NCBI GenBank assembly: GCA_963844255.1
Contig: CAWJNP010000018.1
Span: forward strand, 14,847-78,846
Direction of reading: 5' to 3'
Origin: an uncultured beta proteobacterium
GTDB lineage: Bacteria > Pseudomonadota > Gammaproteobacteria > Burkholderiales > SG8-39
Length of the DNA stretch: 64,000 bases
Positions 18,337 to 59,244 of the stretch are shown in pieces. The notes under the pieces were generated by a model that saw only the letters and a list, made by a program, of their open reading frames with translations, made no database searches and was not told the origin of the DNA. The position numbers and the translations under genes were made by a program. The stretch's first letter is position 1, and every line of letters begins with the position of its first letter.

Positions 18337-18358
18337 GACCCATAACCAGGAGGCAGTC

Positions 18359-19636: not shown

Positions 19637-19642
19637 CAGGCC

Positions 19643-27500: not shown

Positions 27501-27662
27501 CGCCCCGGGCAGCACCGCGCGCACCGAGATCGTCGGGTAGTCCACCTGCGGCAGCGGCGCGACCGGCAGCAGCTTGAACGCGATGGCCCCGGCCAGCGCG
27601 ATGCCCAGTGTCAGCAGAGTCGTGGCCACGGGCCGATCGATGAAGGGACGGCTGATGTTCAC
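24558..27662 (-). CDS. mdtC: Multidrug RND transporter permease, MdtC-like
   Basis: 1034 aa. N-terminus ...[81 protein letters not shown] closely follows E. coli MdtC as I recall it. Confidence 0.9.
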
Positions 27663-27669
27663 GCGACCC

Positions 27670-30600: not shown

Positions 30601-30762
30601 CGCGCCGGGGTAGAGCGTCACCACCTGGATGGTCGGGTAATCGACCTCGGGCAGCGCGGAGATCGGCATCACCCGGTAGGCGATGAGGCCGGCCAGCATG
30701 ATCGCGACCATGAACAACAAGGTCGCCACCGGCCGGAGGATGAAGATGCGCGAGGGATTCAC
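27670..30762 (-). CDS. mdtB: Multidrug RND transporter permease, MdtB-like
   Basis: 1030 aa. ...[86 protein letters not shown] is nearly identical in pattern to E. coli MdtB. Confidence 0.9.
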
Positions 30763-30772
30763 GCCCGGATGC

Positions 30773-32221
30773 TTACTGCGGGCCGCCGCCGGCTTCGCGC
30801 TGGCGGCGCAGTTCGCGCATGTACTTGATGCGATCCTCCTGCGACATTTTTTTCACTTCCTCGCCGAATTCGCCGCGCTCGATGCGCGCGTTGACCTCGG
30901 CCCAGCGCTTCGCCCGTGCCTCCGGCGAGAGCGCCGCGCCGCCGCCCGGTCCCGTCGTGCCGCCCTTGGCAGCGCCGCCCTTGCGCGGCGCGGTGGCCGC
31001 TGCGCGCGCCTCGGTGGTCGTCGCCTCGATCTTTGCGCCCTCGCGCAGCTTGTCGGCGCCGTCGACGACGACGCTCTCGCCGGCCGCAAGCCCCGATTCG
31101 ACCGCCACGGACTCGCCCTGCACCGGTCCGAGTTTCACCTTGCGCACGCTCACCGTGCTGTCGGGTTTGACGACGTAGACGTAGGTGCCCGGGGTACCAC
31201 GCTGTACCGCTGCGCCCGGAATCAGGACTGCATCGGGCTTCACATCGACCAGCATGCGCACGTTGGCGAACTGGCTGGGGAACAGCGCGTTGTCGGCGTT
31301 CGCAAACTGCGCCTTGAGCTTCACCGTGCCCGTGGCCGGGTCGATCTGGTTGTCGACCGTCAGCAGCGCGCCGCTCGCAAGCCTGACCTTGTCCGCGCGG
31401 TCGTAGGCATCCACCGGGAGTTTCGCGCCGGCGCGCAGTTTGGCCATGACCGGCGGCAGGCTGTCTTCCGGGATCGAGAACACCACGGCGATCGGCTGCA
31501 GCTGGGTGATGACGACCAGCCCGTTGGCGTCCCCTGCGCGCACCATGTTGCCGCTGTCCACCTGGCGCAGGCCGAGGCGCCCGCTGACCGGCGCGGTGAT
31601 CCGGCAGTAGGACAACTGCAGCCTTGCGGATTCGATGGCCGCCTGGTTGATCTTGACGGTACCCTCGTACTGGCGCACCAGGGCCTCCTGCGTGTCGACC
31701 TGCTGCTTCGCGATCGAATCCTGCTCCTGCAATGTGCGGTAGCGCTCGAGGTCGATGCGCGCGTTCTTCAGCAAGGCCTGGTCGCGCGCCATCTGCCCTT
31801 CAGCCGTGGCGAGCTGCACCTGGTAGGGACGGGGGTCGATCTCCGCGAGCAGGTCGCCCGCGCGCACCACCTGGCCCTCCTTGAAGGCGACGCGCATCAG
31901 TTGTCCGTCGATCCGGCTCTTTACGACCACAGTAGCCAGCGGCGTCACCGAACCGAGCCCGGCGAGAATGACATTGACCTCACCGGACTTCGCGGGCGCC
32001 GTAATCACCGGCGTCGCCAGCGACCCGGGACCGAAGCGCCCCTTGCCCTTGCCCGGACCCGGCTTTGCGGTGTCGCCGGCGGCAGGGTTCCCGCTCTGAA
32101 ATCCACCCTGCTGGTAGTAATACGCAGCCCCGGCGCCTGCGGCAATCAAGATGACCGCCACCGGCCAGATCCAGCGCCACCTGCGGTTTGAACGGGTTCC
32201 TGATGCGTTGGATTCGGGCAT
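30773..32221 (-). CDS. mdtA: RND adaptor (MdtA-like) with about 85-aa C-terminal extension
   Basis: Start chosen at [31 protein letters not shown] (TM anchor), complement 32219-32221. It has an MFP core. The tail ...[68 protein letters not shown] extends beyond the usual MFP end. Confidence 0.85.
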
Positions 32222-32451
32222 GGTCGGGACTTCCGGGTATCGCGCCGGCGGCGCGGGATGCTGATACGGCTTTATAGCGGTTCGCGCGGTTCGCGGGCAA
32301 TGCTTCCTTGTAACACTTTGTAGCACTTGCACGACCGCCTGCACCTGCGCCCGCCCACCAGGGCGCCGAATGGATAGAATGCGCGCATCAATTCCCGTGC
32401 CCGGAAACGAGGCCGCTGGATTCGATTCACACCATCATTCAAGGAACCCTC

Positions 32452-39695: not shown

Positions 39696-40310
39696 ATGGA
39701 AAAATTCACCACGCTCACCGCAATCGCCGCCTGGTACCCGAGGGACAACGTCGACACGGACCTCATCATCCGCGTCGAGCGCTGTGCCAAAGTGGAGAAG
39801 GAAGACCTCGGGCCGTATGCGTTCGAGATGGCGCGCTTCCTCCCGGACGGCAGCGACAATCCCGAGTTCCCGCTCAACCAGGGACCGTTCCGCCAGGCGC
39901 AGATCCTTGTCGGCAGCATCAATTTCGGTTGTGGCAGTTCGCGCGAAATGGCCGTGTGGGCGATTGCCGGGATGGGCATTCGCTGCGTGATCGCACCCTC
40001 GTTCGGCGAAATCTTCTTCGCGAACTGTTTTCAGAACGGGTTGCTGCCCGTGATCCTGCCGAACGACGTGGTGCAAGTACTTGGCGCGACACTGGCCGCA
40101 GACCCCGCGAACGCGCGCCTCACCGTGGACCTCGAACGGCAGGTGGTCGTCGCCCCGGATGGCGGGGAGCATGCGTTCGCGATCGAACCGCGCCGCAAGA
40201 AGGCGCTGCTCGAGGGCCTGGACGGCATCGCGCTGACCCAGCTTCACGAGTCCGACATCGCCGCCTTCCAGCAGAGAGACCGTCTCAAGCGGCCCTGGGT
40301 GTACGTCTGA
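39696..40310 (+). CDS. Aconitase-family hydro-lyase small subunit (LeuD-like)
   Basis: 204 aa. NVDTDLIIR..., NFGCGSSREMAVWA..., IAPSFGEIFFANCFQNGLLPV. It starts 2 nt after the large-subunit stop. Confidence 0.9.
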   Translation: MEKFTTLTAIAAWYPRDNVDTDLIIRVERCAKVEKEDLGPYAFEMARFLPDGSDNPEFPLNQGPFRQAQILVGSINFGCGSSREMAVWAIAGMGIRCVIAPSFGEIFFANCFQNGLLPVILPNDVVQVLGATLAADPANARLTVDLERQVVVAPDGGEHAFAIEPRRKKALLEGLDGIALTQLHESDIAAFQQRDRLKRPWVYV

Positions 40311-40366
40311 TTCTGTAACTTTTAAAAATAAAGACCAGCTCCAGGAGCCGGCCTTCGGTCAATCCG

Positions 40367-40384
40367 TGTATCGGTATCGATACA
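40367..40384. repeat. Near-perfect 18-bp palindrome TGTATCGGTATCGATACA (copy 2 of 2)
   Basis: 17/18 identical to 876-893. The shared left flank GTCAATnnG is present. This copy also sits in a convergent intergenic gap. Confidence 0.85.
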
Positions 40385-40412
40385 ACCCCGTCACCGGATG
40401 AGTTCGAACCAA

Positions 40413-41484
40413 TCAGGCTTTTGCCTTGCGGTTGAGTTCCAGGCGCGCATCGACAATGCCCACCAGTTCGTCGAGCACCGCGGAGCGCATGCCTTTCTGC
40501 GCCGCCACGGTCTGCACCAGGCGGTCGACCCGCTCGATGTTGGGCGCCCCGCCGAACAAGGCGCGCGCGGCTGACGAGGGGTTGGCGAGCCCCTGCGCGG
40601 CGGCGGCGTACTTCTCGAACGGCACGAGGTCCTTCTCGTTCGCGCCCAGCGACACGCACGAGCTTCACGACCCAGTTGAAGACCTCGCGCGAGGCCGCGA
40701 GATCGGAGTGCACGGCGTCCTTGATCGGACGCATCGCGTCCTTCTGTACGCAGCGATAGTTGCCGGCGATCAGCATCGCCCACTTGGCCAGCGGCACGAA
40801 CACCGACTCGTGCACCTTCAGCTTGACCGGCAGTTCGATCATTCCGGATCCGGTGTCGAAGCGCACCGCCTCGATGTCCGCCTCCAGTTCGCGCAGCATC
40901 GCGGTGTGCGCATCCGACGCGAAGCGCGCCGACTTGAAGTTGGTCGGCAGGCGCACCTGCAGCACGTTGACCTTTTCCTCCGGCGGACGAAACGCCTGCG
41001 GATCCGGGCTGCACAGCGTCATCAGCGTCGGATCGAAGCTGTCCCACACCTCGGGATCCTTGTAGCAGCTGCGGCAGGCCTTCACGTCGATGCCGGGGAT
41101 ACGCGCGAGATAGGTCAGCGGCGGCATGTTCATGATCGACATGCAGGGCACCTTCGCCTTCGCCACGGCGTCCAGCAGTTCGCGCACGCCGGGCGAGCGG
41201 TACTGCGGCTCCTGCATCGCGAGCACGACCAGATCGTAATCGGCGGGATTGGCCGACTGCGGACCGCCCGCGGACAGTTTCCCGGAGAGCTTCCTCGACT
41301 CGATCTCCACCAGGCCTTCGCGGCCCTTGATCGGCATGCGCACGATGGCGCCTTCGGAATTGAATAGATCCGCTTCGGCGGGCAGGCAGATCAGCTTCAC
41401 CGTATGGCCGGCATGCAGCAGCTTGATTGCCAGCAGCGAGCCATAGGAGGCGCCCATGATCAGGATCTTGCGCATTGTGCTCAT
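40413..41484 (-). pseudogene. NAD(P)-binding Rossmann-fold oxidoreductase of unclear family (ketopantoate-reductase-like layout), one +1 insertion as assembled
   Basis: MSTMRKILIMGASYGSLLAIKLLHAGHTVKLI (GxxxG dinucleotide fold) ... FNWVVKLV / LSLGANEKDLVPFEKYAAAAQGLANPSSAARALFGG... The frame shifts near 40655. The start at complement 41482-41484 is preferred over the upstream extension. Confidence 0.6.
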
Positions 41485-41689: not shown

Positions 41690-42496
41690 TTGAAAATCCG
41701 CCGCAACGATCCCGGAATGCCGGATCCGGACCGTCAGTTCGCCGCCACCCTGTCGCGCGGACTGCAGGTGCTCGCCTGCTTCAGTGCCGCCGAACCCTTC
41801 CTCACGAACCGGGACATTGCTGCACGCACCGGCCTGCCGCGGCCCACGGTGTCGCGTCTGGCGTACACGCTCACGCGCCTGGGCTACCTGCAGCACCATC
41901 CACATCTGGGCAAGTACGGAAAGTACGAGCTGGGCTCGGCGGTGCTCTCCCTTGCGCATCCACTCCTTGCCAACCTCGGCGTGCGCCAGGTCGCGCGCCT
42001 GCCGATGAAGGAACTGGCGGATCATGCGCGGGGCTGGGTATCGCTCGGGATCCGCGAGCGACTCAACATGGTCTACATCGAAACCGCGCGCTCCGAGGGC
42101 AGCCGCGCGGTCAAACCCGATATCGGCCAGACCTTCCCGATCGTCGTCTCGGCAATGGGCAGGGCCTACCTCGCCGCATTGCCCGCGCACGAGCGCACCG
42201 CAATGATCAACCAGTTGCAAGTCAAGACGCCCGCGCTCTGGAACGCCCACGCCGTGCAGGTCGAGCGCGGGCTGAACGACTACATCGAACGCGGCTTCTG
42301 TCTGGGTCAGGGTGACTACGACCCGCACACGCACACGGTCGCCGTGCCGATCCGCCCGCCAGGCAACGCGCAGGTGATGGTGTTCAACTGCGCAGTCAGG
42401 GTCGAGAACCTGGCGCCCGGCGCGCTGGAGAACGACCTGGGTCCGCGGCTGGCGCAGATGGCGCGCTCGATCGAAAGCGCCCTGGACGCCGCCTGA
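41690..42496 (+). CDS. IclR-family transcriptional regulator
   Basis: HTH LTNRDIAARTGLPRPTVSRLAYTLTRLGYL plus an IclR effector domain (...MVYIETARS...GQTFPIVVSAMGRAYLAAL...). The start could be TTG 41690 or ATG 41717. Confidence 0.85.
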   Translation: MKIRRNDPGMPDPDRQFAATLSRGLQVLACFSAAEPFLTNRDIAARTGLPRPTVSRLAYTLTRLGYLQHHPHLGKYGKYELGSAVLSLAHPLLANLGVRQVARLPMKELADHARGWVSLGIRERLNMVYIETARSEGSRAVKPDIGQTFPIVVSAMGRAYLAALPAHERTAMINQLQVKTPALWNAHAVQVERGLNDYIERGFCLGQGDYDPHTHTVAVPIRPPGNAQVMVFNCAVRVENLAPGALENDLGPRLAQMARSIESALDAA

Positions 42497-42515: not shown

Positions 42516-43715
42516 TCAGGCGGCGCGCGCCGCCCCGCTTTCGATCATCGCCTCGACCGCGTCCGCGTCGAACCCGGCCTCGAGCAGCACCTCGCGCGTA
42601 TGCTCGCCGAGCAACGGGGCATGCCGCCGGTACCCGGGCGCCGACTCGGACCACTCGGAGGGAACGGCCATCGTACGTATCGTGCCTTCAGTCGGATGCT
42701 CGCGCAGGGTGAAATAGCCGATTGCCGCGAGGTGCTCGTCGGCGATGATGTCCTCGAGGTCGTTCATGCGCTGCGCAGGGATGTCGGCCTGGGCGAACGC
42801 CTCCACCCACTCGGCGGTGGTGCGCCTGGCGATTTCCGCGGCCAGCAGCGCATTGGTGGCGCCATAGTTGCGGCTGCGCGAATCGGCATTCGCGAAGCGC
42901 GCATCCTCATCCATCAGCGCGGGTTTTCCGATCAGTCCGAAGAACGCGCGCCACTGCTTGTCGTTGTAGATCAGGATGCAGATGTAGCCATCGCTGGTCC
43001 GGAAAGGGCGCCGCTCCTTCGAGAGGATGCGCGCATAACCGGGCGCATCGATGCGCGGCTCGAATCCGGCGCCGCCCAGGTGCTCCCCGAGGACCAGCGC
43101 CAGCATGTGCTCGAACATCGGGATGTCGATGCGTTGCCCCTTGCCGGTCTTTTCGCGATAGTAGAGCGCGGCGCCGACGGCGCTCGCGATCTGCTGGCCG
43201 ACGGCCCTGTCCACCAGATTGATCGGCGCGTAATGGGGTTCCTCCGCACCCTGCACCTGGAAAAGCGCGGGCAGGCCGATCGCACCCTGGATCAGGTCTT
43301 CGTAGGCCGGCCGCGCCGCATACGGACCGCGCTGGCTGTAGCCGAACGCCCCCACATAGATGATGCGCGGATTTGCGGCGCTCACCTCCTCGTACGACAG
43401 GCGCAGGCGCGCCATCGCCTGTGGGCGGATGTTGTAGACCAGAACGTCAGCGCCGGCAGCCAGCGCAAGCACCGCGTCACGCGCCTCGGCCCGCTTCAGA
43501 TCCAGCACGACCGAGCGCTTGTTGCGGTTGACGTTCATGAAAAAATGGCTCATCCCGCGGTTGCGGTACGGCCACAGCTGGCGGGTCACGTCACCGTCCG
43601 GGGATTCGACCTTGATCACCTCGGCACCCATGTCGCCGAGTATCTGGGTCGCAAACGGTCCCATCAGCACCGTCGAAAGGTCGATGACGCGTACGCCCTC
43701 GAGCGGGCCGCTCAT
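42516..43715 (-). CDS. Family III CoA-transferase (CaiB/BaiF/Frc type)
   Basis: 399 aa. MSGPLEGVRVIDLSTVLMGPFATQILGDMGAEVIKVE..., ...NKRSVVLDLK.... Confidence 0.9.
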   Translation of the reverse strand: MSGPLEGVRVIDLSTVLMGPFATQILGDMGAEVIKVESPDGDVTRQLWPYRNRGMSHFFMNVNRNKRSVVLDLKRAEARDAVLALAAGADVLVYNIRPQAMARLRLSYEEVSAANPRIIYVGAFGYSQRGPYAARPAYEDLIQGAIGLPALFQVQGAEEPHYAPINLVDRAVGQQIASAVGAALYYREKTGKGQRIDIPMFEHMLALVLGEHLGGAGFEPRIDAPGYARILSKERRPFRTSDGYICILIYNDKQWRAFFGLIGKPALMDEDARFANADSRSRNYGATNALLAAEIARRTTAEWVEAFAQADIPAQRMNDLEDIIADEHLAAIGYFTLREHPTEGTIRTMAVPSEWSESAPGYRRHAPLLGEHTREVLLEAGFDADAVEAMIESGAARAA

Positions 43716-43957
43716 GCGATGCCCAGCACCTTTGCAAGGACCTCGGGCGTCAGTTGCACGCCCGAATAGAATTTACCGTCGACTTCAAGCACCGGCGAGG
43801 AGCGGATGCCGAGATCCTCGATCTTCTCGGCCGCCTCCTCGTCCATCATGAGGTCCCTGGCCTCGAAGGCCACACTGTGCGTCCTGAGGTAGAGCTTCAG
43901 GCGCTCGCAGGGCGCGCACAGTGGCGTCGAATACACGGTCACGCTCGCGGCCGCCAT
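43712..43957 (-). CDS. Glutaredoxin/NrdH-like small redox protein
   Basis: 81 aa. VTVYSTPLCAPCERLKLYL...SSPVLEVDGKFYSG has a CxxC and a cis-Pro-type motif. Its ATG shares one base with the upstream gene's stop (TGATG), and its stop overlaps the CoA-transferase ATG. Confidence 0.8.
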   Translation of the reverse strand: MAAASVTVYSTPLCAPCERLKLYLRTHSVAFEARDLMMDEEAAEKIEDLGIRSSPVLEVDGKFYSGVQLTPEVLAKVLGIA

Positions 43958-44841
43958 CAGACCTTCCCTTCGGCCTTGAGCTTCTTGTAGATCTCCTTCT
44001 TCTTCAGCCAGTCGGCTTCGACTTCGCCGGATTTCCACGGCTGCTCGGGCGTGAACACGCGCTCTTTCCATTCATCACCATGGCTCCAGCGGAACGGGGT
44101 CTGCAGGGTGGTGCGCGGCGCGAAGGCGCTCTCGAGGAGCTTGAAGCCCATCTCGAGGATCGCGCGCTGCTGCTCCGGGTTGTGCGGCTCGCCGCAGGGA
44201 CTGCCGAGCGGGAAGTCGGTGTGTACCACGCGCGCAAGGCCGACGTGCTCGACGATGTCCCGCGCCGCGGCCAGCACCACAGTCGGAATTCCGTTGGCCT
44301 CCAGGTGGCGCGCGACCAGGCTGATGGTCTGGTGGCACACCGGGCAGACCGGCACCAGCACGGCGACATCGGCACCATCCTCCCGGCAGCGCTCGAGCAC
44401 GGCCGGCGCATCGCGTTCGCGCGTGCGGCGCTGGCTGTAGGCATTGAACACGCCGTGAAAGCGCGCGGTCAGCCCGCCGATGCGGCCGGCGGCCAGCGCC
44501 TCGTGCAGGCGCGTGGTCGGAAAGAACGCGTCCACGTCCTCCAGCGTCGTGGCGGCCTGGTCGAAGCTGTGCGAGGGGCTGTAGAGCTGCGCTGCGGGCA
44601 GATCCGAGGGGATCGTGTAGGTCCCGCCGACGATGCCCATCTGCGTTTCATCCTCGACCTGTTCCCCGCCGCGGATCGAGATCTCGCTGGTCGAGATTAG
44701 CGTCACGCGACACTTCGACAGCGGCTTCGTCATGGGCGTGAACGGCACCTCGTCGAAGTGCGCCCACTGGTAGGGTTTGTCGTAGCCCTGCGACAGGTAG
44801 TAGTCGCGGGTCTTGTCGATGTAGCGGACGTAGCTGGTCAT
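43957..44841 (-). CDS. Glycine/sarcosine/betaine/D-proline reductase component-B-like protein (GrdB/PrdB family, Cys-type)
   Basis: MTSYVRYIDKTRDYYLSQGYDKPYQWAHFDEVPFTPMTKPLSKCRVTLISTSEI... and ...VAVLVPVCPVCHQTISLVARHLEANGIPTV match my recollection of proteobacterial GRDB-family proteins. This is a family call from memory and needs an HMM check. GGAGGA RBS lies 7 nt upstream. There is no in-frame TGA. Confidence 0.55.
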   Translation of the reverse strand: MTSYVRYIDKTRDYYLSQGYDKPYQWAHFDEVPFTPMTKPLSKCRVTLISTSEISIRGGEQVEDETQMGIVGGTYTIPSDLPAAQLYSPSHSFDQAATTLEDVDAFFPTTRLHEALAAGRIGGLTARFHGVFNAYSQRRTRERDAPAVLERCREDGADVAVLVPVCPVCHQTISLVARHLEANGIPTVVLAAARDIVEHVGLARVVHTDFPLGSPCGEPHNPEQQRAILEMGFKLLESAFAPRTTLQTPFRWSHGDEWKERVFTPEQPWKSGEVEADWLKKKEIYKKLKAEGKV

Positions 44842-45084
44842 GGCGGATCCTCCGGAGGGTACGGACGGATCATCGATAACCGCTGCCAGCCCTGTCAACA
44901 CATCGATCCGAGCGTTCGCGTATTGAAACGTAACATGACTTACCGCAGTGCGAAAAACGGTTTCTATATTTCAATCTGCGAAATATATCGCCGATATGCC
45001 AGATCGGGCGTTGCGCAGGCGGAGCCCCATGACGAATACTCCTTCCATGCTGGTGCTTCCCCGAACCTTCAGAGGGTATTCAAG

Positions 45085-45711
45085 ATGACTGCATCGCCAC
45101 AGCCAGAATCGATCAGCGATGTTGTCGCCGAGCGCATGCAGCTCGTGCGCGCGATGCTGGTACGCGTGCGCAGCCTCGCCGAACCCGGTGTCGACCGAGC
45201 GGTCCTTGCCCGTATCGAGACCGAGTTGAAGTCACTCGCGGCACGACGCGATCTGTTTCCGGTCGAGGAGTTCCCGCCGCTTGAAGGCGGCAATTCGAGC
45301 ATGTACCGGCTGTCGGAAGATCCCGACCATCGCTACGCACTCTACGTCGTTGCGCCCGCACCCGGCGGCTTCGCTCCGCCGCACGATCATTCCACCTGGG
45401 CGGTGATTGCGGGCGTACACGGTCGCGAGAACAACAAGCTCTACACGCGCACCGACGACCGCTCGCAGCCGGGCGTGGCGCATATCGAGCAATCCGGTGA
45501 AATCGACATCGTGGCCGGGACGGCGGTCGCACTGATGCCGGAGGACATCCATTCGATTCACCTGGGCGCCGACGGTCCGCACTGCAACCTGCACCTCTAC
45601 GGCATGAGCGTCGAGCACTGCCCCGAGCGCAGGATGTACAGCCGCTCCAAGGGCACCTTCAAGAACTTCCCGGCAGCGACCGGGATACGGCCGGCCCGTG
45701 GGGCCGATTGA
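45085..45711 (+). CDS. Cupin of the cysteine-dioxygenase type I (thiol dioxygenase) family
   Basis: 208 aa. N-terminal helical region then GGFAPPHDHSTWAVIAGVHG (G-x5-H-x-H with no Glu, as in CDO homologues). The third His is in PEDIHSIH and a Tyr in NLHLYG. Confidence 0.65.
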   Translation: MTASPQPESISDVVAERMQLVRAMLVRVRSLAEPGVDRAVLARIETELKSLAARRDLFPVEEFPPLEGGNSSMYRLSEDPDHRYALYVVAPAPGGFAPPHDHSTWAVIAGVHGRENNKLYTRTDDRSQPGVAHIEQSGEIDIVAGTAVALMPEDIHSIHLGADGPHCNLHLYGMSVEHCPERRMYSRSKGTFKNFPAATGIRPARGAD

Positions 45712-45732
45712 GTCAACCACGCTGGAGACCGA

Positions 45733-46701
45733 ATGAAACGCCTGATCCGAATCGCCGTCACGCTGGCCGCCGCCTGCATCCCGTTTACCGCCCCCGCCCA
45801 GGGCTATCCTGCCAAGCAGGTGAAGATGATCGTGCCCTTTCCCCCGGGAGGAACCACCGACATCATGGCGCGCGTGATCGCCGAACGCCTGCAGTCGAGC
45901 CTCGGACAGGCCTTCGTGGTCGAGAACCGCAGCGGTGCCGGCGGGGTCATCGGGACCGACGCCGCTGCAAAGGCCACGCCTGACGGTTACACCATACTGC
46001 TGTCCTCGTCGGCGCCGCTCGCCGTGGGCCTCAAGCTTTACCAGAAAGTCCCCTATTCAGTGCAGCACGACCTGGCGCCGGTCTCGATGGTTGGCGACGT
46101 GTCCATGGTGCTGGTGGCAGGCAGCGCGTTCAAGGCCAAAGGTGTAAAGGAGACGATCGCCTATGCGAAGGAAAATCCGGGCAAGCTCACAATTGCACTG
46201 AACGCGCTGGGGTCCCAGGGCCACCTGCTGACCGAACTGTTTCGCCTGCGCACCGGCACCTCGATCAACATCATCCCGTACAAGGGCTCGGGCCCTGCGG
46301 TGATCGATCTGATCGCGGGCGTGGTGGACGCGGACTTTGAAAATCTGCCCGCCGTGATCGAGCACATCAAGGCTGGCAGGCTGCGCGCACTGGCCGTCCT
46401 TTCCGCCAAGCGCTCCGAGCTCCTGCCCGACGTGCCGACCTTCGTCGAGCTCGGCATGCCGGAATTCGTCGCTTCGCCCTGGTTCGCGATCGTGGCCCCG
46501 GCGGGAACCCCGCGCGAGGTCATCACCACGCTCAACCGGGAGATCAACAAGGTGCTAGGCTCACCCTCGGTCAGAACGGTGTTCTCCAAACAGGGCGCCA
46601 ACCCCCTGATCGCCACACCCGAGGAAACCGGAAAATTCATCCGCGAGGAGATAGAAAAGTGGGCCAAAATCGTCGCGGAGACCGGCGCCAAGCTCCAGTA
46701 G
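45733..46701 (+). CDS. Bug-family (TctC-like) tripartite tricarboxylate transporter substrate-binding protein
   Basis: Signal peptide, YPAKQVKMIVPFPPGGTTDIMARVIAERL..., ...IPYKGSGPAVIDLIAGVVDA.... 322 aa. No tctA or tctB lies nearby. Confidence 0.9.
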   Translation: MKRLIRIAVTLAAACIPFTAPAQGYPAKQVKMIVPFPPGGTTDIMARVIAERLQSSLGQAFVVENRSGAGGVIGTDAAAKATPDGYTILLSSSAPLAVGLKLYQKVPYSVQHDLAPVSMVGDVSMVLVAGSAFKAKGVKETIAYAKENPGKLTIALNALGSQGHLLTELFRLRTGTSINIIPYKGSGPAVIDLIAGVVDADFENLPAVIEHIKAGRLRALAVLSAKRSELLPDVPTFVELGMPEFVASPWFAIVAPAGTPREVITTLNREINKVLGSPSVRTVFSKQGANPLIATPEETGKFIREEIEKWAKIVAETGAKLQ

Positions 46702-46714
46702 ACATGCGGGCCGC

Positions 46715-49048
46715 ATGAGCACGCCCCTGCTCACCTCGATGCACTGGGGTATCTACGAAGTCGAGCGCGAAGCCGGCCGGGTCACAGGACTGCGCCCCTT
46801 TGCGCACGACCCCGATCCGTCCCCCATCGGCAGCGCGGTCGCAGCAGCCGTCACCGGACCCACCCGGGTGCGCCGACCGGCCGTGCGACGCAGCCTGATC
46901 GAGCACGGACCCGGCGCCGCGCCGGAACGCCGCGGCATCGACCCTTTCGTCGAGGTTTCCTGGGACGAAGCACTCGACCTGGTCGCAGGCGAAATTGCAC
47001 GCGTGCGTACAACGCACGGCAACGCGGCGATCTTTGCCGGTTCCTATGGCTGGTCGAGCGCGGGACGCTTTCATCACGCGCAAAGCCAGGTGCACCGCTT
47101 CATGAACTGCGCCGGTGGCTACACCGGGCATGTGGGCACCTACAGCCTCGGTGCCGCGCGCACCCTGATGCCGCGGATCCTCATGTCGATGGACGACATC
47201 ATCGGGCGCATGACGTCCTGGCCGGTGCTGGAAGCGCATTGCGAATTGTTCGTCGCTTTCGGCGGCCTGCCGGGGAAGAACGCGCAGGTCGGCACCGGGG
47301 GGGCCTCGCAACACTGGCTGCGCGGCGGGCTGGCCCGTCTGGCAGCGGCTGGCTGCACGATCGTGAATATCAGCCCGGCGCGCACCGACCTGGACTGCGG
47401 CGCCGACGGATGCGTCGAGTGGCTGCCGATCCGTCCAAATACCGATGTCGCGCTGATGCTCGCGCTCGCGCACGAACTGCACAGGCACCGGCGACACGAC
47501 CGCAGCTTCCTTGATACCCACTGCGCCGGCTATCCGGAGTTCGAACGCTACCTGACCGGGGACGCCGACGGCCAGCCCAAGGATGCGCGCTGGGCGTCGG
47601 ACATCACCGGCATCGCACCCGAACGAATCTCGCAGCTCGCCGGGCGCATGGCGGCAAAGCGAACCATGCTGAACGCAAGCTGGTCGCTGCAGCGGGCCGA
47701 CCACGGGGAACAGCCTTTCTGGATGCTCGTGACGCTGGCCGCCATGCTGGGGCAGATCGGCCTGCCCGGCGGCGGCTTCGGCCTGGGCTATGCGGCAATC
47801 AACAACGCTGGCGCGAACGGCGCCGCCTTCTCCGGGCCAGTGCTGCCACAGGGCGCCAACGCAGTGAAGACCCAGATCCCGGTGGCGCGGATCGCCGACA
47901 TGCTGCTCGACCCCGGCGGGCGACTGGAATTCAACGGCGACACGCTCGTCTATCCCGACATCCGGCTGATCTACTGGGCAGGCGGAAACCCGTTTCATCA
48001 TCACCAGGACATCAACCGGCTGATCGCCGCCTGGCGTCGGCCCGAGACCATCGTTGTCAACGAGCAGTACTGGACTGCGAGTGCAAAGATGGCCGACGTG
48101 GTGCTGCCTGCCACCACCATGCTCGAGCGTGACGACATCGGCAGCGCCACGCGCGACCGCTACATGGTCGCAATGAAACGCGCAATCGAACCGGTGGGCG
48201 AAGCGCGCGACGACTATGCGATTTTCAGCGCGCTCTCCGCGCGCCTCGGCTCGCACACGGCCTATACCGAAGGGCGCGACCCCATGCAGTGGCTGCGCGA
48301 ACTGTACGCGCGCTCGCGCGTGCGCGCGCGCGACTTCGACATCGACCTGCCGGACTTCGACCTGTTCTGGTCGCGCGGCCTGCTCGAAATGCCGGCGCCG
48401 GCGCGGCCCGCGGTGTTCCTCGATGCGTTTCGCGCCGACCCGCAGGCCAATCCCCTGCCCACCCCCACCGGTCGAATCGAGATTCATTCGCACACCATCG
48501 CCGCGTTCGGCTATGCCGACTGTCCCGGCCACCCGGTCTGGCTGGAGCCCGCGGAATGGCTGGGAAGCCGGCAGCCTGGCGATCTGCGCCTGCACCTGCT
48601 GTCAAACCAGCCTTCCACCAAACTGCACAGCCAGTACGACCATGGTGCGCTCAGCCGGGCAAACAAGATCCGTGACCGCGAACCCGTGCTCCTGAATCCG
48701 GACGACGCGGCGGAGCGCGGCATCTCGGCTGGCGACGTCGTGCGCGTATTCAACGAACGCGGCGCCTGCCTTGCCGGCGCCCGCCTCGATGCGGGCCTGC
48801 GCCGCGGCGTGGCGATGATGGCCACGGGCGCCTGGTACGACCCGCTCGATCCAGCCGAGGACGGCACACTCGACAAGCACGGCAACCCCAATGTACTGAC
48901 GCGCGACCGGGGCACGTCCCGGCTCACGCAAGGCTGCAGCGCACATACCGCACTGGTCGATATCGAACGCTACGATGGCGCGCTGCCGCCGATCACGGCC
49001 TTCGATCCGCCAGCCTTTGCATCCCGACAACTCAAGGAACACGAATGA
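46715..49048 (+). CDS. Cytoplasmic molybdopterin oxidoreductase of the DMSO-reductase family, BisC/TorZ (S-/N-oxide reductase) type
   Basis: 777 aa with no signal or TAT motif and no N-terminal Fe-S Cys cluster. ...TSMHWGIYEVE..., GSYGWSSAGRFHHAQSQVHRF..., NPFHHHQD, and a C-terminal ...TLDKHGNPNVLTRDRGTSRLTQG barrel. Confidence 0.85.
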   Translation: MSTPLLTSMHWGIYEVEREAGRVTGLRPFAHDPDPSPIGSAVAAAVTGPTRVRRPAVRRSLIEHGPGAAPERRGIDPFVEVSWDEALDLVAGEIARVRTTHGNAAIFAGSYGWSSAGRFHHAQSQVHRFMNCAGGYTGHVGTYSLGAARTLMPRILMSMDDIIGRMTSWPVLEAHCELFVAFGGLPGKNAQVGTGGASQHWLRGGLARLAAAGCTIVNISPARTDLDCGADGCVEWLPIRPNTDVALMLALAHELHRHRRHDRSFLDTHCAGYPEFERYLTGDADGQPKDARWASDITGIAPERISQLAGRMAAKRTMLNASWSLQRADHGEQPFWMLVTLAAMLGQIGLPGGGFGLGYAAINNAGANGAAFSGPVLPQGANAVKTQIPVARIADMLLDPGGRLEFNGDTLVYPDIRLIYWAGGNPFHHHQDINRLIAAWRRPETIVVNEQYWTASAKMADVVLPATTMLERDDIGSATRDRYMVAMKRAIEPVGEARDDYAIFSALSARLGSHTAYTEGRDPMQWLRELYARSRVRARDFDIDLPDFDLFWSRGLLEMPAPARPAVFLDAFRADPQANPLPTPTGRIEIHSHTIAAFGYADCPGHPVWLEPAEWLGSRQPGDLRLHLLSNQPSTKLHSQYDHGALSRANKIRDREPVLLNPDDAAERGISAGDVVRVFNERGACLAGARLDAGLRRGVAMMATGAWYDPLDPAEDGTLDKHGNPNVLTRDRGTSRLTQGCSAHTALVDIERYDGALPPITAFDPPAFASRQLKEHE

Positions 49049-50268
49049 ATGCAGCAGGAGTAGAGGCAAGGGGCGCGAATGCGCTGCCCCTCGACGGGAT
49101 CCGCGTCGTCGACTTCTCTCGTGTGCTGGCCGGCCCCATCTGCGGCGCGATGCTCGGCGACATGGGCGCCGATGTGGTCAAGATCGAGGATGTGCGCGGC
49201 GGCGACGAGTCGCGCACCTGGCCGCCGCAGCGCGGCGGCGAATCGGGCGCCTATATCGTCAACAACCGCAACAAGCGCGCGATCGCCCTCGACCTGAAGC
49301 AGCCCGAGGCGGCACAGATCGCGCTGGAGCTCGCAAGCCGCGCGGATGTGCTGATCGAGAATTTCCGCACCGGCACGATGGAATCGTTCGGGCTCGGCTG
49401 GGACGTGCTCGCCGCCCGCAACCCCCGCCTGATCTACTGTGCGGTGTCGGCGTTCGGGCGCACCGGTCCGCGCGCGGCCGAAGCCGGGTACGAGGCGCTG
49501 ATGCAGGCGTTCAGCGGCGTAATGTCGATCACCGGCGAACCGGACTCGGCGCCCGTGCGTTGCGGGGTATCGGTGCTGGACATCATGACCGGCACGCTGT
49601 GCAGCTTCGGGATCGTGAACGCGATCCTCCAGCGCCAGAAGACGGGCGTCGGCCAGCGCATCGACGGCTCGCTGTTCGATACCTCCATCGGCCTGATGAA
49701 CTTCCAGGCCCAGAACTACCTGCTCACGGGTACGGTGCCGAAGGCGCTCGGTTCCGCCCACCCGTCGCTGGTGCCCTACAGGAACTTCCGCTGTGCCGAC
49801 GATCTGTGGATATTCGTCGCCGGCGGCAACGACCGCCTGTGGCAGCGGGTGGCACGCGCGCTCGGGCTGGAAGCGATGATCGAGGATCCGCGTTACGCCA
49901 CCAACATGGCCCGGGTTGCGAACCGCGCGGATGTCGAAGGCGCGGTTACAAGAGCGATCGCGCAGCACGCGCGTGCGCCCTTGCTCGAATTGCTCGAGCG
50001 CGCGGGCGTGCCGGCCACGCCGGTCAATACGATCGACCAGGCGCTGGGCGACCCGCAGGCGGCCGACCGGCCATCGCTCAGGGAGATGGCCCATCCAACG
50101 CTCGGAAACATCGATGTCGTCGGCATGCCGCTGGGATTCTCCGCAATGCAGCCGGAGATCAGGCGACACGCGCCGATGCATGGCGAGCACACCGACGAGG
50201 TGCTCGGTGAACTCGGCTATACGTCCGCGCAGATCGCGGACCTGCGCTCGCGCGGCCTGATCGCCTGA
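49045..50268 (+). CDS. Family III CoA-transferase (second copy)
   Basis: 407 aa. LDGIRVVDFSRVLAGPICGAMLGDMGADVVKIE...NKRAIALDLK. The ATG overlaps the molybdoenzyme stop (ATGA). Confidence 0.9.
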   Translation: MNAAGVEARGANALPLDGIRVVDFSRVLAGPICGAMLGDMGADVVKIEDVRGGDESRTWPPQRGGESGAYIVNNRNKRAIALDLKQPEAAQIALELASRADVLIENFRTGTMESFGLGWDVLAARNPRLIYCAVSAFGRTGPRAAEAGYEALMQAFSGVMSITGEPDSAPVRCGVSVLDIMTGTLCSFGIVNAILQRQKTGVGQRIDGSLFDTSIGLMNFQAQNYLLTGTVPKALGSAHPSLVPYRNFRCADDLWIFVAGGNDRLWQRVARALGLEAMIEDPRYATNMARVANRADVEGAVTRAIAQHARAPLLELLERAGVPATPVNTIDQALGDPQAADRPSLREMAHPTLGNIDVVGMPLGFSAMQPEIRRHAPMHGEHTDEVLGELGYTSAQIADLRSRGLIA

Positions 50269-56458: not shown

Positions 56459-58833
<2,375 letters not shown>

Positions 58834-58836
<3 letters not shown>

Positions 58837-59244
58837 TCCGGCCGCTCCATCGGGAACGACGGCCGTGGCTTCGATCTCGAGTCGCGCCGCATCCTCCACC
58901 AGCGCGCCCACCTGGACGACAGCCATCACCGGATAGTTCCGGCCCATCAATTCGCGGTAGGCCGCGCCGACTTCCGCGATCGCGGCGAGGTACTCCTGCT
59001 TGTCCACGACATACCAGGTGAGCCGCACGAGATGCTCTGGTCCACCGCCCGCTTCTGCGAGCACGGCAAGGATGTTCTTCATCGCCTGCCGGAACTGCCC
59101 GGCGAAGCCTGTTTCGGTAAATTCGCATTTCTCGTTCCAGCCGATCTGGCCGGCAATGAACACCAGTTTCCCGCCGCGGGTGGCAAGCCCGTTCGAATAG
59201 CCCCTCGGCCTGGCCCAGCCCGGTGGTTGGAGAACCTGCATCAT
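58834..59244 (-). CDS. RidA/YjgF-family protein (enamine/imine deaminase fold)
   Basis: ...[23 protein letters not shown]...[23 protein letters not shown]...[25 protein letters not shown]. Confidence 0.85.

Follow-up and report, generated by a model that had tools for sequence, protein, structure and literature searches.

The locus raises the question of which substrate would call for a thiol dioxygenase, a cytoplasmic molybdoenzyme, two family III CoA-transferases, a periplasmic solute-binding protein and a PrdB-like reductase encoded side by side. A preliminary description had proposed a module for the catabolism of an organosulfur acid. This interpretation was partly supported: a conserved organosulfur unit was recovered, but Mdo as the model, the pocket types considered for the dioxygenase and the GrdB label of the reductase were not upheld.

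Gene Content and Organization

All eight genes and the overlaps previously reported were found in the window (the whole stretch of 64,000 nucleotides analysed) at their coordinates, as two divergent operons and a neighbouring IclR gene. The minus-strand operon comprised genes for a PrdB-like reductase (43957–44841), a glutaredoxin/NrdH-like redoxin (Grx; 43712–43957) and, last, CoA-transferase A (42516–43715); the stop of the first and the start of the second overlapped as TGATG, and the second and third were joined by an ATGA overlap. The plus-strand operon comprised genes for the dioxygenase (45085–45711), a Bug/TctC periplasmic solute-binding protein (45733–46701), the molybdoenzyme (46715–49048) and CoA-transferase B (49045–50268), with gaps of 21 nt between the first two and 13 nt between the second and third, and an ATGA overlap between the last two.

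The gene for an IclR-family regulator (PcaR/PobR-like; 41690–42496, plus strand; HTH_IclR E 2.6e-17, IclR_C E 4e-16; 122 bits against TIGR02431, under the cut-off) was convergent with that for CoA-transferase A across a 19-nt gap. Its orthologue (61–84% identity) adjoined the cluster in loci of relatives (L001–L004, L008–L010 and L012–L014), and this regulator probably controls the locus. The Bug/TctC protein matched PF03401 (E 3.5e-72) and had a signal peptide; its nearest solved structures bind terephthalate, glutamate and adipate, and its gene was directly 3' of the dioxygenase gene in relatives too.

Conservation and the Divergent Region

The cluster is real and is kept across Burkholderiales, including Bordetella. 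At least seven Burkholderiales loci shared the full gene set, which recurred in L001–L003, L008, L009 and L014; L011 had part of it, with reduced sets in Lacisediminimonas (without the second CoA-transferase) and in Verticiella and Bordetella (without the molybdoenzyme). The dioxygenase and PrdB-like operons were co-located in at least 10 species-level genomes, in two architectures. Gene order in Bordetella was rearranged relative to the other loci and the linkage was kept, which argues for selection on linkage.

A rhodanese of about 530 aa adjoined this dioxygenase family in 77 of 95 loci, a near-universal neighbour in keeping with the organosulfur signature claimed earlier. In the window, the divergent promoter/operator region (44842–45084) aligned with the stretch between the PrdB-like and rhodanese genes in L001, L002, L008 and L009, with ATCATCGATA, TGTCAA and AGCGTTCGCGnAnTGAAA as conserved blocks; one conserved regulatory region was common to both operons. 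It contained the first ~19 codons of a rhodanese gene, with an ATG at 45029 and a stop overlapping the dioxygenase ATG, and the relic MTNTPSM matched MPNTRPM at the rhodanese start of relatives. By this alignment the ~530-aa rhodanese gene was deleted in the window, leaving the 19-codon relic; it was also lost in L001 and L014/L103. Together with the loss of the molybdoenzyme in Bordetella and Verticiella, the loss of the rhodanese indicates that the module is plastic.

Thiol Dioxygenase

The cupin (208 aa) had zero Pfam or NCBIfam matches even at E = 10, and its identity was taken from the match to mercaptosuccinate dioxygenase (MSDO; PDB 8VNI, E 2.5e-36, 35% identity), its closest solved relative. 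Its AF2 model (pLDDT 93.6) superposed on 8VNI with TM 0.84/0.90 at 2.2 Å. Matches to MDO/CDO were at about E 1e-6, with 21–23% identity to the MDO type. By homology the protein is a true member of the thiol dioxygenase family, as its earlier placement among CDO-type cupins implied, but its closest characterised relative was Msdo of Variovorax paradoxus B4 and not Mdo.

The 3-His iron site (H100, H102 and H156), whose loss would have spoken against the organosulfur proposal, was intact on alignment, and these residues, the H170/Y172 pair and R182 were invariant across the clade. R182 was the equivalent of the proximal-carboxylate R175 of MSDO, which forms a salt bridge to the iron-bound carboxylate (bioRxiv 10.64898/2026.05.19.726356). 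The pocket was neither of the Arg type nor of the Gln type between which the preliminary description had asked for a choice: Met (M73) was at the canonical position and Arg (R75) at +2, with the proximal MDO/MSDO Arg kept. The distal-carboxylate residues Q64, R66 and N82 of MSDO, and its H161, were replaced by S71, M73, V89 and N168, so that the substrate is probably an alpha-mercapto acid other than mercaptosuccinate. Specificity may vary between members, since the Bordetella dioxygenase had Cys where the clade has Arg75.

The window dioxygenase shared the cupin fold, 3-His Fe site, His/Tyr pair and carboxylate Arg with Msdo/MSDO of V. paradoxus B4 and Advenella mimigardefordensis DPN7, and each family pairs with a rhodanese/sulfurtransferase of ~530–570 aa. 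Gene contexts differed: LysR, cystathionine beta-lyase and an ABC transporter for amino acids make up the surroundings of canonical MSDO, whereas the window cluster had IclR, TctC, a BisC-type molybdoenzyme, two CoA-transferases and the PrdB-like/Grx pair.

PrdB-Like Reductase and Glutaredoxin

The minus-strand reductase had been labelled GrdB-like; the relation to the PrdB/GrdB family was borne out, but the closer match was PrdB (TIGR04483, residues 34–252, E 3.7e-31, 108 bits, far under the cut-off of 300); GrdB matched at E 7e-9 and Pfam GRDB at just E 0.011. Homology to PrdB and GrdB/F/H extended across the whole PrdB core, with the redox motif at the PrdB UxxC position and just 24–32% identity to true PrdB. 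The motif CPxCHQT (C166 and C169) was invariant. An in-frame TGA (UGA) occupied the C166 position in 67 of 80 metagenomic homologues, and these Sec-form genes had a conserved SECIS-like hairpin 3' of the UGA, with its loop CGUGA invariant in all 42 unique sequences. The window protein thus represents, in its Cys form, a family of [U/C]PxCHQT selenoproteins. It was the most conserved protein of the cluster (82–91% identity in relatives), and a fold search of the PDB with its AF2 model (pLDDT 87.9) returned zero relatives.

Environmental surveys had recorded a PrdB UxxC selenoprotein with Cys homologues (42 Sargasso Sea genes; in GOS, 235 Sec and 110 Cys forms; PMC1088965, PMC2398784). This 'proline reductase PrdB (UxxC)' family of Zhang, Gladyshev and colleagues is homologous to PrdB, abundant in oxic metagenomes and matched by the Sec-form loci found here; the two are probably the same set. 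The surveys give the family a D-proline reductase function by name only (PMC1088965, PMC2398784), and its Grx partner and gene context are not described in the portions available.

The Grx (YruB/NrdH-like; PF00462 E 5e-13; CAPC motif) had its true start at 43957, giving 81 aa. Of the 67 eligible metagenome loci, 47 had a Grx homologue as the next gene downstream of the PrdB-like one, as did 11 of 11 Cys-form loci; the motif of the redoxin was CxxC, never Sec, in the 52 homologues in which it was readable. PrdA/GrdE (the pyruvoyl partner), GrdA and GrdC were absent from annotated loci and recurrent neighbour clusters. Compared with PrdB/GrdB systems, the window lacked genes for PrdA/GrdE, PrdC, GrdA and GrdC, and its PrdB-like protein had a Grx of its own, was extended at both the N- and the C-terminus, occurred in hosts that are aerobic proteobacteria and had a CoA-ester context.

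Among 35 loci with a length of at least 7 kb, 15 encoded CoA-ester enzymes no more than 8 kb from the PrdB-like gene. Among loci without the dioxygenase, four (L096, L097, L115 and L116) had the order CoA-transferase, rhodanese, PrdB-like, Grx, CoA-transferase, with a single-domain rhodanese immediately 5' of the PrdB-like gene, and L093 had a beta-oxidation cluster and TauE. A glutathione-reductase-like flavoprotein was ~200 bp or less from the PrdB-like gene in most of seven loci. In the related dioxygenase loci L090/L091, two GSTs took the place of the PrdB-like/Grx pair, a further pointer to thiol-dependent chemistry.

Molybdoenzyme and CoA-Transferases

The molybdoenzyme (777 aa) scored 992.6 bits against TIGR00509 bisC_fam (cut-off 1017.55) and aligned with the R. 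sphaeroides DMSO reductase from mature residue 8 (E 2.4e-216). Neither a Tat signal nor an Fe-S domain was found in it, and S144, Y111 and W113 corresponded to S147, Y114 and W116 of DorA, which agrees with the signal-less S-/N-oxide-reductase type initially assigned. It shared with BisC/DorA (type III DMSO-reductase family) a single-subunit bis-MGD organization, the Ser ligand and the Tyr114 and Trp116 equivalents, and with BisC the lack of a signal peptide; it differed in that its gene sat in an operon between TctC and CoA-transferase genes. The TctC-molybdoenzyme pair adjoined the dioxygenase in L005–L007, and an MSDO-type homologue in L092, without a PrdB-like gene, so that the role of the molybdoenzyme there cannot need PrdB-like thioether cleavage.

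CoA-transferase A (CoA_transf_3 full length, E 1.9e-108; 69–88% identity in relatives) matched no equivalog, with SUGCT, Frc and Rv3272 as nearest solved structures (about E 1e-52). CoA-transferase B (CoA_transf_3 E 9.5e-128), of the SUGCT/YfdE-like dicarboxylate type, had 355 bits against the succinate-glutarate CoA-transferase model NF052585 (cut-off 750), and matched PDB 4ED9 and 9BR7 at about E 1e-85 and CaiB merely at E 1e-24. Both enzymes were SUGCT/YfdE/Frc-like and not CaiB-like. None of the orthologous clusters among the loci compared was tied to carnitine or betaine genes, a link that would have spoken against the organosulfur proposal.

Proposed Pathway and Alternatives

The locus may be an IclR-linked catabolic or salvage island for an imported carboxylate whose sulfur sits at the alpha-carbon or close to it, as a thioether or thiol or an oxidised form of either, a tentative reading that falls somewhat short of an even chance. 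The acid would be captured in the periplasm by Bug/TctC, and a sulfoxide, if this were the substrate, would be reduced to the thioether by the cytoplasmic molybdoenzyme, an accessory step given the missing gene in Bordetella and Verticiella, where the enzyme is dispensable. CoA-transferase A would form the CoA thioester. By analogy with D-proline and glycine reductase, and with the thioester replacing the missing pyruvoyl subunit PrdA, Cys166 of the PrdB-like protein (Sec in most homologues) would attack the activated alpha-carbon and Cys169 resolve the adduct, yielding acyl-CoA and a free mercapto-acid by reductive cleavage of the alpha-C-S bond; the co-translated CxPC glutaredoxin would re-reduce the disulfide. 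The MSDO-like Fe(II) dioxygenase would turn the alpha-mercapto-acid into a sulfinate, the best-supported step given the 35% identity to MSDO and the conserved iron and proximal-carboxylate ligands. CoA-transferase B would activate the sulfinate or the desulfinated acid, with release of sulfite, and in most relatives the multi-domain rhodanese, deleted in the window, would handle sulfur by-products. Gene identities, active-site residues, conserved linkage and the Sec/Cys relationship come directly from the data, whereas the class of substrate, the sequence of steps and the chemistry of the PrdB-like protein and of the molybdoenzyme are inferred.

The LigF/LigG beta-etherase offers a mechanistic analogy only, that of two-step thiol-dependent reductive cleavage alpha to a carbonyl: first a thiolate takes the place of the leaving group, then a second thiol attacks the sulfur, giving an enolate and a disulfide. 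LigF/LigG are unrelated, have the GST fold and break C-O bonds; a pair of GSTs does flank the related dioxygenase of L090/L091. The 3-mercaptopropionate/3-sulfinopropionate pathway of V. paradoxus TBEA6 and A. mimigardefordensis (Mdo, Act or SucCD, AcdA) has in common the logic of thiol dioxygenase, family III CoA-transferase and sulfite release, and TctC-type proteins, also present here, are implicated in its uptake. The window differs in its added reductive components and in the lack, noted at the outset, of an acyl-CoA-dehydrogenase-type desulfinase anywhere in its 64 kb. None of the enzymes of the cluster was assigned to desulfination, which counts against the salvage reading. So do the heterogeneous settings of the PrdB-like/Grx pair: in over half of the long metagenome loci with this pair, the queries used detected no CoA enzyme. 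We know of no precedent for a Cys, rather than Sec, nucleophile breaking a C-S bond without a pyruvoyl partner, a further point against it. Full-text searching of the literature on this gene combination and on candidate substrates yielded no characterised pathway, as the preliminary description had stated.

Alternatively, the imported substrate might be a mercapto-acid disulfide, mixed disulfide or persulfide from which the PrdB-like/Grx pair recovers the free thiol on which the dioxygenase acts, while the CoA-transferases would do no more than feed the desulfurised carbon skeleton to central metabolism. This is unlikely. In its favour, a UxxC/CxxC motif that has its own Grx makes a classic thiol-disulfide relay, rhodanese often neighbours both the dioxygenase and the PrdB-like protein (as in L096, L115 and L116), and GSTs stand in for the pair in L090/L091. 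In Advenella, the disulfide DTDP is first cleaved by a reductase. Its catabolism there runs via its thiol, 3-mercaptopropionate, and Mdo (PMC5373536). However, the homology of the PrdB-like protein, which spans all of PrdB, is to enzymes that break a C-N bond at the alpha-carbon and not to disulfide reductases, and its gene was translationally coupled via Grx to that for a CoA-transferase and elsewhere lay in beta-oxidation or CoA-transferase operons; a simple disulfide reductase would not need such coupling.

An oxidative molybdoenzyme, converting sulfite to sulfate or sulfinate to sulfonate in place of sulfoxide reduction, is improbable and is compatible with the salvage reading of the other genes. 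Characterised BisC/DorA-type members are, to our knowledge, reductases. Adjacency of the TctC-molybdoenzyme pair to the dioxygenase even without PrdB-like (L005–L007 and L092) is consistent with oxidation, as is the link between growth of V. paradoxus B4 on mercaptosuccinate and a molybdopterin enzyme proposed as a sulfite oxidiser (PMC5373536). The published description of the B4 enzyme, however, is of a SoeABC type that has Fe-S subunits (PMC6370202), whereas the window enzyme was single-subunit, had no Fe-S domain and kept the Tyr/Trp/Ser of S-oxide reductases.

It is doubtful that PrdB-like/Grx reductively strips sulfide or rhodanese-bound persulfide from an alpha-mercapto- or alpha-sulfo-acyl-CoA, as an O2-independent alternative to the dioxygenase on the same substrate. 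The rhodanese between CoA-transferases, TauE nearby in L093/L131 and the adjoining TauD-family genes in L151, L154 and L175 would fit such desulfurisation, but it would have to expel hydrosulfide, which leaves poorly, and would give a single regulon two redundant routes for the same substrate, and we know of no precedent for it.

A similarly slim chance is given to a non-sulfur substrate, with PrdB-like reductively cleaving the C-N bond of an acid of the amino, N-methyl or betaine kind, free or as its CoA ester, and with the dioxygenase a mere neighbour. The characterised relatives PrdB, GrdB, GrdF and GrdH all cleave C-N bonds (PMC13188914), and one Grx-less Sec clade neighbours glutamine-synthetase-like genes; however, the PrdA/GrdE, GrdA and GrdC partners were missing from the annotated loci and recurrent neighbour clusters, the CoA-transferases were not CaiB-like, and the dioxygenase linkage survived the Bordetella rearrangement, with one regulatory region for both operons. 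Two unrelated operons back to back by chance are highly improbable, as the same gene set recurred independently at many loci, with one version rearranged, and the operons lay together in at least 10 species-level genomes, in two architectures and with a conserved divergent promoter region in common, although the modules also occur apart (dioxygenase and rhodanese in Alphaproteobacteria, PrdB-like/Grx alone in many metagenome loci).

The cluster supplies a testable biochemical context for a widespread, uncharacterised selenoprotein reductase, present here in its Cys form.

Gene Organization and Conservation of the Cluster

In the window (G+C about 65%), ORFs called in six frames, filtered by GC3 and searched against profiles confirmed the eight genes at the coordinates assigned to them in the preliminary description. 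The minus strand carried CoA-transferase A (CoAT_A; 42516-43715), a glutaredoxin-like protein with the motif CAPC (Grx; 43712-43957) and a 294-aa PrdB/GrdB-like protein (PrdB-like; 43957-44841). The plus strand carried an IclR gene (41690-42496), a cupin (45085-45711), a Bug/TctC protein with a signal peptide (TctC; 45733-46701), a 777-aa molybdoenzyme (Mo; 46715-49048) and CoA-transferase B (CoAT_B; 49045-50268). The gene overlaps also held, with ATGA at the Mo/CoAT_B and Grx/CoAT_A junctions and TGATG at the PrdB-like/Grx junction.

The upstream flank encoded an SDR, a PEP-mutase/ICL-family protein and both subunits, large and small, of an aconitase-type enzyme, together with a 399-aa ORF left unassigned, and the downstream flank a small secreted protein, a Tag glycosylase and a Na+/H+ exchanger. 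As these flanks are unrelated to the module, its end was placed at 50268. The 399-aa ORF (40285-41484, minus strand) had a Rossmann-like N-terminus and no Pfam match, was divergent from the IclR gene, and shared part of its length with another long ORF read in a different frame. In relatives the ORF was missing, and its position was taken by an ECH gene plus a small HTH gene. Searches of the window for Rfam families and tRNA genes gave no match.

Outside the module, an 889-aa ORF (56459-59128, minus strand) had an unusual architecture, an FAD_binding_3 aromatic-hydroxylase domain fused to an Old-Yellow-Enzyme (Oxidored_FMN) domain, by which an assignment to MutS was ruled out; a synteny test against Lacisediminimonas with this ORF found nothing. 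Of two RND efflux loci (17302-22867, plus strand, and 24558-32344, minus strand), one was MdtABC-like, with two AcrB-type genes and a membrane-fusion protein, and the other had a Pyr_redox_2 flavoprotein gene between its membrane-fusion and AcrB-type genes.

Homologues of the dioxygenase (the cupin) with 64-93% identity came nearly all from uncultured Betaproteobacteria/Burkholderiales, plus Lacisediminimonas profundi. Among the related loci compared (numbered with the prefix L), the full eight-gene set was present in L001-L003, L008, L009 and L014, and in part in L011. The set was without CoAT_B in Lacisediminimonas, without exactly the molybdoenzyme gene in Verticiella, and rearranged and without the molybdoenzyme gene in Bordetella bronchiseptica (IclR-rhodanese-dioxygenase-CoAT_B-TctC, with CoAT_A-Grx-PrdB-like on the other strand). 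In a clade at 64% identity (L005-L007), IclR, dioxygenase, TctC and Mo were followed by PrdD-like, SDR, ACAD, CoA-ligase and CoA-transferase genes, and L092, a true MSDO-type (mercaptosuccinate dioxygenase) locus, had a divergent Mo-TctC pair. Of all proteins in the set, PrdB-like was conserved best (82-91% identity). Linkage of the cluster genes is conserved, and the regulatory region is common to both operons.

Of 95 loci of the dioxygenase family, 77 also had a multi-domain rhodanese of about 530 aa, which in most close relatives lay between PrdB-like and the dioxygenase; no rhodanese was found anywhere in the window. The 243-bp divergent region of the window aligned with the PrdB-like/rhodanese promoter region of relatives, with conserved blocks ATCATCGATA, TGTCAA and AGCGTTCGCGnAnTGAAA. 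Positions 45029-45088 were a relic of the first 19 or so rhodanese codons (MTNTPSMLVLPRTFRGYSR and stop), with its ATG at 45029 and its stop overlapping the dioxygenase ATG: the rhodanese gene was cleanly deleted. Locus L001 had an independent and different rhodanese deletion with both gene ends kept, and L014 and L103 had a 129-bp gap in place of the gene.

Thiol Dioxygenase

The 208-aa cupin gave no Pfam or NCBIfam match even at E = 10, and was identified through PDB sequence and fold searches only. Its best PDB sequence match was MSDO (8VNI, E 2.5e-36), followed by 3-mercaptopropionate dioxygenase (MDO) and the Arg-type CDO (about E 1e-6); identity to MDO structures was 21-23%. The AlphaFold model (pLDDT 93.6) superposed on 8VNI with TM 0.84/0.90 and rmsd 2.2 Å, and fitted MDOs (TM about 0.7-0.8) and CDOs (about 0.6) less well. 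The cupin fold with its 3-His Fe(II) site was present: aligned with MSDO the site was intact, H100, H102 and H156 corresponding to MSDO H93, H95 and H149, and these ligands were invariant in 24 homologues. The outer-sphere His-Tyr pair of the SHY motif was kept (H170/Y172, MSDO H163/Y165) and invariant in homologues, and the third SHY position was N168, where MSDO has His (H161) and CDO/MDO have Ser.

R182, invariant across homologues, corresponded to MSDO Arg175, which salt-bridges the iron-bound C1 carboxylate (bioRxiv 10.64898/2026.05.19.726356). In MSDO the distal (C4) carboxylate of mercaptosuccinate is bound by Gln64, Arg66 and Asn82 (same source); in the window cupin these were replaced by S71, M73 and V89. 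The clade motif was SSMYRLSED, compared with HQARYLIAED in MSDO and P0107, and the clade Arg sat two residues past the canonical one, both lying in one predicted beta-strand (E73-77 of the model). The Arg-type features of CDO were absent, with Met73 at the Arg60/Arg66 position and Ala106 at that of Cys93 (Cys93-Tyr157 crosslink), and so was the Gln-type pair of MDO, with Met instead of Gln and only the Arg168/Arg175 equivalent there. The choice between an Arg-type and a Gln-type pocket, raised in the preliminary description, was answered by neither, with Met at the canonical position and Arg at +2.

By sequence, the cupin is a thiol dioxygenase of the MSDO clade with a changed distal pocket. 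Since the distal-carboxylate residues are replaced and the iron and proximal ligands kept, the simplest reading is that its substrate would be a thiol-carboxylate that chelates iron like mercaptosuccinate and differs in its distal part.

The B. bronchiseptica dioxygenase (L013, 10001-10624) had Cys (YCL) in place of the clade Arg75 (YRL), and the locus was without the molybdoenzyme; a shift of specificity in the classical bordetellae is possible. The B. pertussis CDOs BP2871 and BP3011 (bioRxiv 10.64898/2026.04.22.720190) were ruled out as orthologues, having the Cys93-type cysteine versus the clade Ala. A related dioxygenase (56% identity) occurred in L090 (7380-11853) and L091 in the order GST-dioxygenase-rhodanese-GST-TctC, with two glutathione transferases where the window clade has PrdB-like/Grx.

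PrdB-like Reductase and its Selenoprotein Family

The top profile of PrdB-like was PrdB (TIGR04483, E 3.7e-31, residues 34-252), at 108.4 bits far short of the equivalog cut-off of 300, and identity to true or annotated prdB genes was 24-32%. Grd models (GrdB/F/H) matched through their C-terminal half only (positions about 200-425, E 1e-8 to 1e-10). Protein B of glycine/sarcosine/betaine reductase has about 430 aa and two domains, unlike the 294-aa window protein, which was without GrdE, GrdA and GrdC partners. The pyruvoyl subunit PrdA and PrdC/D/E were absent beside PrdB-like in the window, where all neighbours were otherwise identified, and PrdA/GrdE, GrdA and GrdC genes occurred neither in the annotated related loci nor among the recurrent neighbour clusters. 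Neither sequence search nor Foldseek with a confident model (pLDDT 87.9) found a structural relative in the PDB (best E 0.04, TM ≤ 0.31).

The UxxC/CxxC redox motif was present as C166-P-V-C169, and CP[VI]CHQT was invariant in 20 aligned homologues, with Met at the third position in a few Sec forms. A metagenome scan with the subfamily alignment recovered 80 PrdB-like loci (56-97% identity), in 67 of which the C166 codon was TGA, with a conserved reading frame continuing past it; the other 13 had TGC or TGT. A hairpin, CCAGAC-CGUGA-GUCUGG, lay 13 nt past the UGA of Sec forms. Of 42 unique sequences, 39 had all seven stem pairs and all 42 had the same loop; synonymous codons were fixed, and one sequence had a compensatory change. 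The hairpin was degraded in Cys forms, including that of the window. From the TGA and the hairpin in homologues it follows that the family is a true selenoprotein family and that the window PrdB-like is its Cys form, with C166 at the position of the predicted catalytic nucleophile. Sec-form homologues were found in L107-L178 (e.g., L140, 8001-8882), where gene callers cut them into pieces of about 165 and 120 aa. An exhaustive search of representatives gave 1529 PrdB-like clusters at E ≤ 1e-3, many of them fragments of 160-170 aa and about 120 aa, as expected from gene callers splitting Sec genes.

This subfamily probably belongs to the same family as the "PrdB" of the Sargasso Sea and GOS surveys, where "proline reductase PrdB (UxxC)" ranks third in selenoprotein abundance (Sargasso Sea) and was tallied in GOS at 235 Sec and 110 Cys members (PMC1088965, PMC2398784). 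In the accessible text of those surveys its function was assigned by name only, and likewise in a 2026 review (PMC13188914).

Genomic Partners of the Reductase

Neighbours were counted by targeted tblastn, de novo ORF clustering being noisy from split Sec genes and intruding antisense ORFs. A CxPC glutaredoxin/NrdH-like gene directly followed PrdB-like in 47 of 67 loci with enough downstream sequence, and in 11/11 Cys forms; its motif was CxxC, never Sec, in 52 homologues with a readable motif. The Sec clade at 69-72% identity (L107-L120) had no Grx neighbour, and its flanks, by sequence inspection only, resembled glutamine synthetase, a peroxiredoxin-domain protein and MtnA (methylthioribose-1-phosphate isomerase).

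In most of 7 loci a glutathione-reductase-like flavoprotein was encoded no more than about 200 bp away from PrdB-like, and it may serve the pair as electron donor. Such a pyridine-nucleotide disulfide oxidoreductase was seen within about 200 bp of PrdB-like(Sec) in L137, L139, L153, L163, L170 and L171. As a rival to carbon-sulfur bond cleavage, PrdB-like/Grx might be a disulfide or persulfide reductase; the pair might also be a reductive desulfurase.

Among the 35 loci with a length of 7 kb or more, 15 had CoA-ester enzymes within 8 kb of PrdB-like, a suggestive and not universal context. In L093/L131 the gene was surrounded by two acyl-CoA dehydrogenases, FadB, thiolase, ECH and TauE. Loci L096, L097, L115 and L116 had CoA-transferase, single-domain rhodanese, PrdB-like, Grx and CoA-transferase, plus ACAD and TctC genes. 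TauD-family genes adjoined PrdB-like in L151, L154 and L175. The recurring neighbours of the family were CoA-ester and sulfur enzymes.

A tight operon in L127 (2921-9160; also in L167 and L132) comprised a distant cupin, a CoxL-CoxG fusion, CoxM, CoxS, PrdB-like(Sec) and Grx, and an enoyl-CoA hydratase gene faced it in convergent orientation; here a molybdoenzyme is paired with PrdB-like for a second time. The operon was ruled out as a second co-occurrence of the cupin dioxygenase with PrdB-like(Sec)-Grx, as its cupin was 28% identical, without the His/Tyr pair, and in a CoxLMS-type operon.

Molybdoenzyme, CoA-transferases and Binding Protein

The molybdoenzyme scored 992.6 bits on TIGR00509 (bisC_fam; cut-off 1017.55) over profile positions 2-769 of 772, and its alignment with the mature DMSO reductase of Rhodobacter (E 2.4e-216) ran over the full length, from mature DorA residue 8. 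It had a Ser Mo ligand (S144) and Y111/W113 as equivalents of Tyr114/Trp116, was without Tat leader and Fe-S domain, and matched only Molybdopterin_N, Molybdopterin and Molydop_binding in Pfam. These features identify a predicted cytoplasmic molybdoenzyme of the S-oxide-reductase type; an oxidative role is the rival reading. The "molybdopterin oxidoreductase" of V. paradoxus B4, described as SoeABC-type and not BisC-type (PMC6370202), was ruled out as a counterpart.

Both CoA-transferases had a full-length CoA_transf_3 domain (profile positions 1-366 of 366), CoAT_B being SUGCT/YfdE-like and CoAT_A more divergent. They scored 123-130 bits on the CaiB model against a cut-off of 413, and in the PDB comparison of CoAT_B, CaiB structures matched at about E 1e-24 versus about E 1e-85 for SUGCT-like ones. 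As judged from these profiles, they are not CaiB-type. A non-sulfur C-N compound would be the rival substrate for the cluster. The nearest solved relatives of TctC bind terephthalate, glutamate and adipate.

Comparison with Known Systems and Proposed Pathway

The cluster belongs to a known kind of system, the organosulfur acid cluster centred on a thiol dioxygenase, of which the Msdo and Mdo pathways are examples. In Variovorax, the canonical MSDO locus has the order sulfurtransferase, amino-acid ABC transporter, dioxygenase, metC and is without the additional genes of the window cluster, the molybdoenzyme gene included. The 3-sulfinopropionate pathway (Mdo-Act-AcdA) has an acyl-CoA-dehydrogenase-like desulfinase, whereas the window cluster is without one, as had been noticed earlier: four ACAD queries by tblastn gave no match in the 64-kb window at E ≤ 1e-3. 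The gene combination of the window was not found in the searchable literature; searches for PrdB with glutaredoxin and acyl-CoA, for selenoprotein B with CoA-transferase, and for thiodiglycolate or mercaptoacetate pathways returned nothing useful. A functional separation of the PrdB-like/Grx pair from clostridial D-proline reductase is likewise absent from the searchable literature.

A tentative general reading, quite possible and still short of probable, is that the cluster catabolises an imported alpha-thio-substituted carboxylate. The incoming sulfoxide, if the substrate is one, would be reduced by the molybdoenzyme, and the acid would be activated to its CoA ester. PrdB-like/Grx would then cleave it reductively at the alpha-carbon into acyl-CoA and a mercapto-acid. 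The mercapto-acid would be dioxygenated to a sulfinate, from which sulfite would be lost, possibly after CoA activation. Sulfinosuccinate has been reported to decompose spontaneously (PMC5373536), so that a dedicated desulfinase would in principle be unnecessary. A more specific and rather unlikely proposal, by analogy, is that PrdB-like/Grx is a PrdA-independent selenol/thiol reductase cleaving alpha-carbon-sulfur bonds of acyl-CoA thioesters, which would be glycine-reductase-type chemistry applied to thioethers.

Proteins of aerobic Proteobacteria that databases name "D-proline reductase PrdB" or "reductase" form a PrdA-less, mostly selenoprotein family with its own glutaredoxin, probably the one that selenoproteome surveys have counted as abundant for two decades with no function given in their accessible text. 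The Cys-form cluster is found in B. bronchiseptica, which is cultivable and genetically tractable, and B. pertussis and B. parapertussis have the reductase as well, so that hypotheses on the family are testable by knockouts and in vitro assays without selenoprotein expression. In an enzyme family of five members, the distinct MSDO-like subclade with its rebuilt distal pocket offers a direct target for finding substrates. Confirmation of the reductase chemistry would add substantially to the interest of the locus. If true, the proposal would explain what the "PrdB" selenoprotein does, whose family is one of the most abundant of all selenoprotein families in metagenomes of the oxic ocean. The Burkholderiales/Bordetella cluster would then represent a complete route by which thioether or sulfoxide carboxylates are mineralised, from reduction of the sulfoxide through C-S cleavage and dioxygenation of the thiol to the release of sulfite.
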